From: a phage
Length of the DNA: 64,000 nucleotides
Direction: 5' to 3' (one strand)
Assembly (NCBI GenBank): GCA_024683775.1
Contig: GCA_024683775.1_4106.1
Part shown: one piece after another, positions 24,357 to 26,339 of the stretch
Layout: every line of letters begins with the position of its first letter
How positions within the stretch are numbered: the stretch's first letter is position 1
Notes under the pieces: generated by a model
Told to the model about the DNA's origin: nothing
Seen by the model: only the letters and a program-made list of their open reading frames with translations
Databases searched by the model: none
Position numbers and translations under genes: made by a program

Positions 24357-24429
24357 GACTCTGTAGTTCAGTTGGTAGAACGCTTCACTCATAATGAAGA
24401 AGTCGCTGGTTCAATCCCAGTACTGACCA
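24357..24429 (+). tRNA. tRNA-like (CAT anticodon) with a non-complementary acceptor stem; possible pseudogene
   Basis: Canonical D-arm GTTC-AGTTGGTA-GAAC, anticodon arm CTTCA-CTCATAA-TGAAG and T-arm GCTGG-TTCAATC-CCAGT. The 5' GACTCTG cannot pair with the 3' ACTGACC. Confidence 0.35.
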
Positions 24430-24438
24430 CAAAAAAAA

Positions 24439-26136
24439 TTAATTTAAAAAATCGTATGGATTTGATTTATTAAATTGTGGATTATTACCATGTAATGTAT
24501 CATATAGATATATTTTACTTAATCCATCACTTGTTATTTGTACAGAATTAGTTGAATTATCATCAACTTTACATGAATATAGATATACTTTAGAAATTCC
24601 GGTTAAATCTGAACCTTGTCCAGAAGTAAAAGCAGTTTGACCTAAAGTGTTATCAGTTCTAGTACTTCCATACGAATGACAATTGATATTTACAGTACAT
24701 GTTTTGTCATGAACATCATGAACAACTCTACCATAAGTTGCATAATATGTACCATTAATTCGTAATCCTACAACACCATCATGTGCTGTAGAACCGTTGT
24801 TATTTGGTAAATTATCAAAACCACTATAACGACCAATACAATTTAATTCAACAAACCAGGGAATTATACCTAAAGAATAAAAATCAGCGTGATAATTAAA
24901 TGCATCTTGCATACCATATTCAGCGATACAATCTTGTAAAATACAATTACTACCTCGTCCATTAAATGAGTTTAATGATGCACTTAAACCAAAGGTAACA
25001 TTTTTGCAATACACATAACATTGTTTATTTGCAGATTGAGTTTCTGCGTGAAAACCACGAAAAGAGTTTGTAAAATGTATATTTTCCATATACAATTTTG
25101 TATTATCTTGAACTCTACCATTGGTCAACTCCATAATAACTTTTACATTATTATTTGGTGCAGTGGATGATGATAGGTGAAAATATGTTATATTTCCAGA
25201 TTTGAAAAATGTACCTGCTGTGGAGTCAACTAACGCAATAGATGTTGTTTGGTTTAAAATATAAGGATGACCATATTTGTCTATAATATTATAATCAGCT
25301 ATATTGAATACTAAATTTTGTGTTATTTGATATACATTATTATATCCTGTTGTTTTTACAAATGTGGGATTTTCTAATTCTCCAGATAAAATAGGTGTTC
25401 CATCATATCCTATAATATCAATAGTTCTATCAACTATTGAGGTTGACCATGTGTAATCTCTAGTGTAGGTTTGATTACCTTTAATCATGATGGTATTTGC
25501 CAATGGTGTTTGTGTAATTGCTTTGTTTATTCTCATAAAAGGTTTTTCAATTGTACCATCACCAGTAGTGTCGGAGCCATTTAATTTATCAACATAATAT
25601 GTTATTTGTGGTGATTGATTTTTGTGAATGGAAACATCATAATCGTAATTGTATGTTAATGTTGAATCTGAATTTATGATTTGAGTTATAGGAAATTTTT
25701 CTTCAATTCTGTGTAATTCATATGGAAGTTCAAGTTTATGTTTAGTTGCTCCAGTAACTAAATCAACAAAAGAATCTCCATTTGAATTAATAAAATTAAG
25801 TATTTGTTTATTTCTAACATTAGCAATGACAAAAAGACCTGAATTATATGTAGAAGATTGATGATAATGACCATCATCTGATACATAAATTGAAATCGTG
25901 TTATCATTTAATGTTAAAGTTTCCTGATTAATACGAATATTTTTACCATTTATAATAAATGAACCATCATTTAAAGTTAATACATTTTTGTTTATAGTAT
26001 ACGTAGGAAAATTTATAATTCTATTACCTAGTATATTATATAAATCAATATTTCTAACTGCACCATTATCATCAATATTTTGTTTAGAAATTGAAGCGGT
26101 TCCTGATATTTTTAAATCTGTTGTTATTTTATACAC
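24439..26136 (-). CDS. right-handed beta-helix (pectate-lyase-like) tailspike or tail-fibre-like protein
   Basis: 565 aa with a GTG start after a CAGGAG RBS. 'YYVDKLNGSDTTGDGTIEKPFMRINKAI' is typical of beta-helix proteins. The remainder is repetitive and rich in Asn, Gly, Thr and Ser. Confidence 0.55.
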   Translation of the reverse strand: MYKITTDLKISGTASISKQNIDDNGAVRNIDLYNILGNRIINFPTYTINKNVLTLNDGSFIINGKNIRINQETLTLNDNTISIYVSDDGHYHQSSTYNSGLFVIANVRNKQILNFINSNGDSFVDLVTGATKHKLELPYELHRIEEKFPITQIINSDSTLTYNYDYDVSIHKNQSPQITYYVDKLNGSDTTGDGTIEKPFMRINKAITQTPLANTIMIKGNQTYTRDYTWSTSIVDRTIDIIGYDGTPILSGELENPTFVKTTGYNNVYQITQNLVFNIADYNIIDKYGHPYILNQTTSIALVDSTAGTFFKSGNITYFHLSSSTAPNNNVKVIMELTNGRVQDNTKLYMENIHFTNSFRGFHAETQSANKQCYVYCKNVTFGLSASLNSFNGRGSNCILQDCIAEYGMQDAFNYHADFYSLGIIPWFVELNCIGRYSGFDNLPNNNGSTAHDGVVGLRINGTYYATYGRVVHDVHDKTCTVNINCHSYGSTRTDNTLGQTAFTSGQGSDLTGISKVYLYSCKVDDNSTNSVQITSDGLSKIYLYDTLHGNNPQFNKSNPYDFLN

Positions 26137-26183
26137 AATATTCTCCTGAATTTTCTAAAAGTTATAATAATATTTAGTTACAA

Positions 26184-26190
26184 TATTTAT
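26184..26190 (-). promoter_or_regulatory. possible T4-type late promoter core (ATAAATA on the minus strand)
   Basis: The minus strand reads TCATAAATATTG about 48 nt upstream of the GTG start. Confidence 0.25.
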
Positions 26191-26206
26191 GATATAGATT
26201 AAAAAG

Positions 26207-26236
26207 TTGAAATGTGTTCAAAAAATGTGGTATAAT
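26207..26236 (+). promoter_or_regulatory. sigma70-type promoter with an extended -10
   Basis: TTGAAA at 26207-26212 and TGgTATAAT at 26228-26236. Confidence 0.5.
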
Positions 26237-26262
26237 ACCTCTGTTGTTCACGGAAAGATTAA

Positions 26263-26339
26263 GCGGGGCTGCCTGAGTAGGCTTAAAGGAGAGGATTGCA
26301 AATCCGATGTTCGTGGGTTCGAATCCACACTCACTGCCA
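26263..26339 (+). tRNA. tRNA-like (anticodon loop TTGCAAA gives GCA, Cys-like) with non-complementary acceptor ends; possible pseudogene or chimera
   Basis: D-arm CCT-GAGTAGGCTTAA-AGG. Anticodon arm GAGGA-TTGCAAA-TCCGA, with only 3 clean pairs. T-arm GTGG-G-TTCGAAT-C-CCAC. The 5' GCGGGGC cannot pair with the 3' CTCACTG. Confidence 0.3.

Follow-up and report, generated by a model that had tools for sequence, protein, structure and literature searches.

We analysed a 64,000-nucleotide (nt) stretch of phage DNA (contig GCA_024683775.1_4106.1 of NCBI GenBank assembly GCA_024683775.1; henceforth referred to as 'the window'), in which a single minus-strand gene for a predicted tailspike-like beta-helix protein of 565 amino acids (aa) stands between two tRNA-like sequences (positions 24357 to 26339). 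Our results make it probable that the locus represents a mosaic joint within an Asteriusvirus tRNA array, where a foreign module carrying the tailspike-like gene is bounded on both sides by hybrid tRNA genes. Genomes of Asteriusvirus, the 121Q/PBECO4 group of Rak2-like jumbo coliphages (~350 kb), match the region from 23500 to 27500, the flanks of the locus are 98-99.8% identical to Escherichia phage WPEC5, and the locus lies within the early region of small plus-strand open reading frames (ORFs) and a dispersed tRNA array. The beta-helix gene is the sole substantial ORF between the tRNAs at 24164-24430 and those at 26494-26669, and the ORF listing, the fold model and the homologues all agree with the original prediction, made from the letters of the DNA, of a lone opposite-strand beta-helix gene between two halves of the array.

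Hybrid tRNA genes on either side of the beta-helix gene

The two elements next to the gene had been described as tRNA-like but with acceptor stems that do not pair, and this description holds for both. The acceptor halves of the left element (GACTCTG and ACTGACC) form just 2 of 7 pairs, the match to the Rfam tRNA model is confined to positions 8-63 (46.7 bits), and the minimum-energy fold has no acceptor stem and is no better than the folds of shuffled sequences (z-score +0.42). The right element receives no call from ARAGORN, its Rfam score is below the gathering score of 29 and again covers positions 8-63 alone, at most 4-5 of 7 acceptor pairs can be formed in any register, and its minimum-energy fold likewise has no acceptor stem and does no better than shuffles (z-score +0.43). 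By covariance model, neither is a normal tRNA. The four tRNAs from which the elements appear to descend (see below) all fold as cloverleaves with closed acceptor stems, whereas the two hybrids do not.

Alignment with other jumbo phages revealed the parentage of each element. On the left, positions 24357-24363 (GACTCTG) and the spacer upstream are of resident tRNA-Asn(gtt) origin: the upstream segment through GACTCTG is identical at 29 of 29 positions to phage G17, in which the last part of the 90-nt tRNA(CAU) is followed there by a CCAATT spacer and then by the 5' acceptor half of tRNA-Asn(gtt). Positions 24372-24430 match the tRNA-Met(cat) of Erwinia phage pEa_SNUABM_47 (Eneladusvirus) at 57 of 59 positions and the tRNA-Met of Pectobacterium phage CBB (Mimasvirus) at 51 of 59, against 38 of 59 for the tRNA-Asn of G17. 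The 8 nt between these segments (24364-24371, TAGTTCAG), in the D arm, are common to both parents and constitute the left crossover zone. As judged from these alignments, the left element is the 5' end of a resident tRNA-Asn fused to a tRNA-Met of Mimasvirus/Eneladusvirus type. On the right, positions 26234-26310, which run from 29 nt of non-tRNA 5' flank through the T loop, are identical at 73 of 77 positions to the tRNA-Cys(gca) of CBB with its 5' flank; from this tRNA the window copy departs by a 1-nt deletion in the T stem and by C28A in the anticodon stem. From 26327 onward the match (74 of 74) is to the 3' end, encoded CCA and spacer of the tRNA-Ser(gct) of phages E9.1, WPEC5 and ph0011, and the crossover zone is a 16-nt sequence in the T arm that both parents have in common (26311-26326, TCGTGGGTTCGAATCC). 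The right element, by the same kind of comparison, is a CBB-type tRNA-Cys fused to the 3' end of the resident tRNA-Ser(gct).

Since each hybrid consists of the 5' acceptor half of one tRNA and the 3' half of another, the 'broken' stems are fully explained. The original prediction that the neighbouring tRNA genes had been damaged is therefore right in that tRNA genes were destroyed, but what remains are hybrids of cassette and resident and not clipped residents. It had also been proposed that the missing acceptor halves be sought elsewhere; a search of the window for the 5' part of tRNA-Ser(gct), the 5' half of tRNA-Met and the 3' half of tRNA-Cys, allowing up to 3 mismatches, found none; in each hybrid, a different tRNA supplies the half in question. 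A tRNA that is split or assembled in trans is thus unsupported, as complementary acceptor halves were not found elsewhere in the window.

The fate of the hybrids differs from that of the gene between them. Compared with the copy in phage UE-S1, the beta-helix gene differs at 39 of 1698 nt (2.3%; 23 synonymous and 16 non-synonymous changes; ratio of non-synonymous to synonymous rates, dN/dS, 0.18) and is kept by purifying selection, and the neighbouring tRNA-Ser(act) differs at 0 of 92 nt (0%). The left and right elements differ at 8 of 67 and 9 of 75 nt, respectively, that is, by ~12%. In the left copy of UE-S1 the anticodon loop measures 8 nt and the T stem is poor, and among copies in which the gene is just 3-4 nt from that of the window the hybrids vary by a T-loop deletion, an acceptor change and a GCA to GTA change of the anticodon. 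Both hybrids behave as decaying pseudogenes.

The module is set here between an array of the G17 type (Ser(act)-Met90-Asn', of which the intact tRNA-Ser(act) is a member) and an array of the WPEC5 type ('Ser(gct)-spacer-Met79-Asn85), in which the resident pair at 26494-26669 is 99.6% identical to WPEC5. Because the latter array supplies a second copy of tRNA-Asn, the one that was lost is redundant. Around the module we detected no meaningful terminal inverted or direct repeats and no transposase or integrase gene, and hence nothing that points to a transposon or a site-specific (integrase-type) element. The features of the locus are listed in Table 1.

Table 1. Features of the locus and its surroundings (positions are those of the window).
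Feature	Position	Strand	Basis or remark
Free-standing HNH homing endonuclease gene, NUMOD4 + HNH_3	23545-24102	+	Pfam, PHROG
tRNA-Ser, anticodon ACT, intact	24164-24255	+	ARAGORN; Rfam 49.9 bits; identical to G17, UE-S1
tRNA, CAU anticodon, 90 nt, extra arm, intact, conserved	24263-24352	+	Rfam 50.3 bits
Left chimeric tRNA pseudogene (putative)	24357-24430	+	ARAGORN call tRNA-Met(cat); Rfam; alignments
Tailspike-like right-handed beta-helix gene (predicted), 565 aa, GTG start	24439-26136	-	Homology, AlphaFold2, Foldseek
Shine-Dalgarno sequence AGGAGA, 5 nt 5' of GTG start	26142-26147	-	Sequence reading
ATAAATA late-promoter-like element of the beta-helix gene	26184-26190	-	48 nt 5' of start
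Sigma-70-type promoter (predicted), TTGAAA-18-TATAAT, extended -10 TG	26207-26236	+	Best match in region, 11/12
Right chimeric tRNA pseudogene (putative)	26263-26339	+	Alignments; Rfam 19.2 bits
Resident spacer 3' of tRNA-Ser(gct)	26340-26493	+	Block common to JNE01/UE-S1 stops at 26484
Resident tRNA-Met, 79 nt	26494-26572	+	ARAGORN/Rfam; WPEC5-type array
Resident tRNA-Asn(gtt), 85 nt	26585-26669	+	ARAGORN/Rfam; WPEC5-type array
Second free-standing HNH homing endonuclease gene, NUMOD3/HNH	26734-27276	+	Also in WPEC5; ATAAATA 34 nt upstream

The beta-helix protein and the expression signals around its gene

The gene product is predicted to be a right-handed beta-helix of tailspike-like type. 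An AlphaFold2 model, for which 19 homologues were available, had a mean predicted local distance difference test (pLDDT) score of 77.7, with values above 85 across most of residues 240-490; residues 1-36 were disordered, a small beta domain (a beta-sandwich) spanned residues ~39-116, and short strands followed at ~179-544. The significant Foldseek matches in the PDB (E <= 0.001) were right-handed beta-helix glycanases, lyases and epimerases as well as phage tailspikes and depolymerases, at template-modelling (TM) scores of 0.15-0.39, which are so low that the fold class is supported and nothing finer. At the sequence level, the protein matched phrog_30606 (unknown function, 2e-73), a tail-fibre family (3e-44) and a 'hydrolase' family in PHROG; a Pfam search returned no family, and a sequence-profile search of the PDB returned just weak local matches to tail fibres and spikes (E about 1e-5 to 1e-6). 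Residues 31-565 are 47-51% identical to tail proteins (tailspikes) of Klebsiella phages and prophages, and the tail protein of Klebsiella podophage Henu1 is 46.9% identical.

The N-terminus is the part in which these proteins diverge. The ~50%-identical proteins of Klebsiella, E. coli and Serratia prophages begin with a P22 head-binding domain (PF09008) or a TSP1 N-domain (PF18668), and the alignment with a homologue of 559 aa begins at residue 31, so that just the first ~30 residues are unique to the protein of the window; homologues of 559-560 aa encoded on ~40-kb contigs have the same short-N-terminus layout. As the N-terminus alone differs among homologues, this is the usual modular pattern of receptor-binding proteins. 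When residues 1-64 were compared with all phage records (E <= 5), they matched just the copies in phages JNE01 and UE-S1, and hence no anchor shared with other Asteriusvirus fibres was found. The first residues may be a short N-terminal docking peptide, as in the 559-aa podophage homologues. We infer that the protein is an accessory receptor-binding or polysaccharide-degrading tail protein that would alter host range and that would be attached to the Asteriusvirus tail. The protein goes unmentioned in the papers on UE-S1 and JNE01, and the GenBank records of the two phages (protein records UTS53484.1 and WOL22925.1) label its gene 'hypothetical protein'.

A late-type ATAAATA element upstream of the gene had also been predicted, and this element is indeed present. 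On the minus strand ATAAATA occurs just twice in 64 kb, in both cases 30-50 nt 5' of a gene (24439-26136 and 34214-35371); these two genes make up our comparison of long minus-strand genes, from which an ORF at 36314-36790 (>= 150 aa, overlapping a plus-strand ORF) was left out. The gene at 34214-35371 belongs to a virion structural protein family (phrog_10468) and has its ATAAATA at 35403-35409, ~30 nt upstream. ATAAATA is the predicted late promoter that precedes structural genes in phages CBB and GAP32 (PMC5259590), and the beta-helix gene would accordingly be a candidate for late expression. A T4-type late promoter (TATAAATA) was considered and rejected, as its single copy in 64 kb (10 would be expected) lies away from the gene. 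The gene at 34214-35371 is also the apparent counterpart of a minus-strand structural/surface-protein gene that lies by the tRNA array in Eneladusvirus genomes (L008, 5428-6561; L009, 4906-6039). On the plus strand, ATAAATA is found at 26694-26700, 52410-52416 and 54123-54129, 33-66 nt before the start of the HNH gene (26734) and of two ORFs (52449 and 54195), respectively, which suggests that a homing endonuclease and a few other genes embedded in the early region may be expressed late.

Back-to-back with the ATAAATA element stands the predicted sigma-70-type promoter, which is directed towards the right-hand tRNAs and is conserved in all copies of the locus (UE-S1, JNE01 and contigs L016-L023). 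By its position, this putative promoter of the cassette replaces the resident promoter that was lost with the 5' part of tRNA-Ser(gct). No intrinsic terminators were found between the convergent transcription units.

Exchange of the module among Asteriusviruses

We considered whether the module bears marks of foreign origin and recent exchange. The block at 24128-26484 is 99.7% identical to JNE01, compared with ~81% in the DNA on either side. The GC content of the beta-helix gene is 27.6%, against a mean of 34.5% (standard deviation 2.0) in windows of equal length, of which 0.16% are as low, and its tetranucleotide usage deviates more than that at any other position in the 64 kb; the compositional check that had been proposed thus singles out this gene as having both the lowest GC content and the most deviant tetranucleotides in the window. 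The claim that the gene is almost devoid of the motif AGTACT fares less well. The motif has 171 copies in the 64 kb against 21.6 expected (about eight-fold enriched), 151 of them inside plus-strand ORFs, and the gene does contain just 1 copy against 4.5 expected at the density of the window; however, this shortfall is weak as evidence of foreign origin (Poisson p = 0.059), and just as few copies are found in 2% of windows of the same length, which lie at five separate places. Because the AGTACT result is statistically weak, the compositional case is far better made by the GC and tetranucleotide deviations. The motif, a palindrome that is enriched throughout coding DNA, has the extended consensus CAGTACTG (examples are at 24113, 24140, 24419, 26360, 26455 and 26658). 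The 6-bp palindromes CCATGG, CAGCTG, AGGCCT, AGCGCT, ACCGGT and CCCGGG have 0 copies in the window.

The module is present in 3 of ~40 Asteriusviruses in the database (the phage of the window, JNE01 and UE-S1), on three different backbones, and within the genus the Met and Cys pieces occur in just these three phages. The gene is found with the same junctions on eight other contigs, which come from bacterial assemblies and sequencing runs. Every copy has the right junction. UE-S1 does not have the left one; in this phage, the module lies upstream of an HNH gene and a Ser(act)-Met-Asn array, tRNA-Met keeps a perfect acceptor stem (GGTCAGT/ACTGACC), and the gene 5' of it is 77% identical in aa sequence to CBB_492, which precedes tRNA-Met in CBB. 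From the absence of the left junction in UE-S1 and the presence of the right one in all copies it follows that there were at least two recombination events, the right one being the earlier, which corrects the single event of the original prediction. The annotated UE-S1 coding sequence UES1_111 (L002, 2310-2564) reads through the degenerate tRNA-Met; as just its first ~60 codons are CBB_492-like, its annotated 3' end is probably spurious. In related phages there is no alternative spike at the locus, and relatives that do not have the module have just tRNAs there, which indicates a gain and not a swap. The earlier view of a recent insertion or replacement by cassette swap therefore stands as regards a foreign, recently exchanged gene and fails as regards the swap: to judge from the genomes compared, nothing was swapped out save tRNA parts and, apparently, a promoter.

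Homing endonuclease genes lie close to both ends of the exchanged block. The upstream HNH gene, the start of which is likely to be the ATG at 23580, is absent at that position in WPEC5, 121Q, E9.1 and JNE01, and NUMOD4-HNH homologues adjoin the opposite end of the cassette in JNE01, UE-S1 and ph0011, beginning just past position 26484 of the window, at which the block common to JNE01 and UE-S1 stops. In T4, the homing endonuclease SegB of the tRNA region biases the inheritance of that region (PMC2330249); such enzymes drive microhomology-associated rearrangement in phage tRNA clusters (PMC13096335) and sit at the borders of exchanged blocks (PMC10448857). We therefore propose that a foreign module of ~2.1 kb, consisting in order of tRNA-Met, the opposite-strand beta-helix gene with its own ATAAATA element and ribosome-binding site, the outward sigma-70-type promoter and tRNA-Cys, would have become fixed between two alternative resident tRNA arrays. 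The 8-nt D-arm match would have joined the resident tRNA-Asn to the tRNA-Met of the module, and the 16-nt T-arm match the tRNA-Cys of the module to the resident tRNA-Ser(gct), both joints lying inside tRNA genes because recombination would have used short sequences common to all tRNAs. The promoter of the module would take over transcription of the downstream tRNAs, and the damage to the tRNA genes would be tolerated because the phage keeps tRNA-Ser(act) and a second tRNA-Asn. Double-strand breaks made by the neighbouring HNH enzymes, repaired from a co-infecting relative, could then have spread the block between lineages.

Several observations weigh against this account or parts of it. The order within the module, Met...Cys, is the reverse of the Cys...Met order in CBB and Eneladusvirus, so that the origin of the module would need an extra rearrangement. 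A search of IMG/VR and of 5.8 billion proteins returned nothing above ~51% identity outside the cassette family, and the immediate donor was not found; the best outside match is just ~50% identical and comes from GC-richer hosts. Neither Pfam nor the phage-record search found a known virion-anchor domain in the first ~30 residues of the protein. In the left hybrid of the window the D, anticodon and T arms are all still perfect, and JNE01 has the identical sequence; the status of this hybrid as a pseudogene here is drawn from the missing acceptor stem and from decay in other copies, not in this copy; the JNE01 record lists it as tRNA-Met and the UE-S1 record lists its counterpart as an undetermined tRNA. 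Finally, the role given to the HNH enzymes is suggested by their adjacency alone.

Alternative readings, related systems and further observations

The simplest alternative would be an insertion between two adjacent resident tRNA genes that clipped one acceptor half of each, in keeping with tRNA-like sequences that directly adjoin the gene and have no acceptor pairing. We regard this as very improbable, since the inner three quarters of the elements match the tRNA-Met and tRNA-Cys of other genera rather than any tRNA resident in Asteriusvirus, each outer part has its match in a different resident tRNA, the acceptor halves are replaced and not missing, and UE-S1 has the gene together with an intact left acceptor stem. 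An error of assembly, in which unrelated reads were joined at tRNA repeats, is conceivable in general because short tRNA repeats can mislead assemblers, but it is ruled out here by the occurrence of the same junctions in three independently sequenced isolates and in eight assemblies from different studies. The converse view, that Asteriusvirus inherited the module from its ancestor and that many losses followed, with no horizontal acquisition or exchange, could draw on the homology of the tRNA-Cys, tRNA-Met and CBB_492-like pieces to a conserved region of the sister genera. It is hard to reconcile with a module that is confined to so few members on different backbones, with a block that is nearly identical where its flanks are only 81% so, and with a composition that is the strongest outlier in the window, and we consider it scarcely probable.

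Further readings concern what the pieces do. The tRNA-like elements might be functional non-canonical RNAs, such as decoys for host anticodon nucleases, processing signals for RNase P or RNase Z, or stabilisers of convergent transcripts: the left element has intact D, anticodon and T arms and is still called by ARAGORN, the right one lies ~20 nt downstream of a strong promoter, and phage tRNAs are known as counter-defences (PMC13096335). Given that the elements diverge by 12% between UE-S1 and the window where the gene differs by 2.3% and tRNA-Ser(act) not at all, that the anticodon loop is 8 nt long and the T stem degenerate in the left copy of UE-S1, that the anticodon change and T-loop deletions vary among near-identical copies, and that the fold energies are no better than those of shuffles, the likelihood of such a function appears slight. 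Less readily dismissed, though still unlikely in our view, is that the beta-helix protein is a free enzyme and no part of the virion, for example a soluble depolymerase released at lysis or an envelope esterase or hydrolase. It has no recognisable N-terminal anchor and no similarity to the N-termini of other Asteriusvirus fibres, its gene is far from the structural gene clusters, and the names of related PHROG and GenBank entries include 'hydrolase' and 'esterase'; on the other hand, its closest homologues are tail proteins (that of Henu1, and prophage proteins with P22 head-binding or TSP1 N-domains), the 559-560-aa homologues share its short-N-terminus layout, and a virion structural gene within the window has the same late-type promoter. 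Going beyond the mosaic joint, the module could be a self-contained host-range cassette whose two terminal tRNA genes serve as portable arms of homology, with the HNH enzymes of the array supplying the breaks. Every phage tRNA array has the same D-arm and T-arm sequences, and such a cassette could therefore recombine into any of them; we think this distinctly unlikely, but if true, jumbo-phage tRNA clusters would serve as general landing sites at which receptor-binding genes are exchanged across genera.

The locus has counterparts in several known systems. Like phage tailspike and depolymerase proteins (the Henu1 tail protein, P22-type proteins and the fibres of jumbo phages K64-1 and FBKp24), the protein is a predicted right-handed parallel beta-helix, with 47-51% identity over residues 31-565 and an N-terminus that alone varies among homologues; unlike them, it is encoded alone, on the opposite strand, within an early tRNA array and not in a tail-fibre cluster, its ~30-aa N-terminus has no known match, its gene has a GC content of 27.6%, and it is known here from the gene alone. 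Phage morons are autonomous extra genes with their own promoter that lie between conserved genes of lambdoid phages. The beta-helix gene resembles them in being one added gene that brings its own promoter and ribosome-binding site, has a deviant base composition and is patchily distributed among close relatives, and departs from them in that the phage is a virulent jumbo phage, the borders are hybrid tRNA genes, and a second, outward promoter would restore downstream expression. With tRNA pseudogenes and hybrid tRNA genes the flanking elements share a mismatched acceptor stem, a sub-threshold or partial covariance match and fast divergence, whereas here both parents and the crossover zones of 8 and 16 nt can be named exactly and the hybrids bracket protein-coding cargo. 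As in the T4 tRNA region with SegB and in the 'HEG islands' (homing endonuclease gene islands) of Barth et al. 2023 (for such precedents, see PMC2330249, PMC10448857 and PMC13096335), a phage tRNA cluster contains free-standing endonuclease genes that border a block with much greater similarity between phages than the DNA around it; however, the endonucleases here are HNH enzymes (NUMOD4, NUMOD3) and not the GIY-YIG enzyme SegB, the block measures ~3 kb and not more than 10 kb, the cargo is tailspike-like, and the likeness is one of gene layout. Overall, the locus is a well-resolved example of known processes, namely moron-like gain, mosaicism associated with homing endonucleases and the formation of tRNA pseudogenes, and hence of ordinary phage mosaicism with unusually sharp junctions. 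It affords a base-pair view of how a candidate receptor-binding gene could move into and between jumbo phages via nucleotides common to all tRNAs, beside homing endonuclease genes. As hybrids are annotated as tRNAs, the numbers of tRNAs given for this phage group call for caution. Asteriusviruses have been proposed for therapy against pathogenic E. coli, and the gene is a candidate host-range determinant present in few members.

Further observations concern other tRNAs of the array. The element at 21743-21821 is tRNA-like but has no D arm (Rfam 32.6 bits, no ARAGORN call); the same sequence is annotated as tRNA-Leu(taa) in 121Q, and its position is occupied by a normal tRNA-Arg(tct) in UE-S1 and ph0011. 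In JNE01 (L001, 5507-5592), 3' of the HNH gene and promoter, lies a tRNA-like sequence that is neither called nor annotated; its acceptor stem is paired and its anticodon loop contains CAT, but a T-psi-C loop is missing. The intact tRNA-Ser(act) has A34, which is unusual for bacteria, and is an alternative to tRNA-Ser(gct), alongside which it occurs in ph0011. The resident tRNA-Asn(gtt) has a GTCA-GAAA-TGAC extra arm and a G73 discriminator, where other Asteriusviruses have a tRNA-Asn of 73-75 nt, and is the second class-II-like tRNA with a non-class-II anticodon in the array. The other, the tRNA with the CAU anticodon at 24263-24352, has a 15-nt extra arm and is 100% identical in G17, phAPEC6 and Sharanji; it is conserved in Xanthomonas phages XbC2 and XaC1 and in Erwinia phage Kaldavass, with a nearly invariant extra arm and seven compensatory stem pairs across four phages. 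In the copy of the window, a G to T change in the D loop is accompanied by C56 to A in the T loop, which may represent covariation of a tertiary pair.

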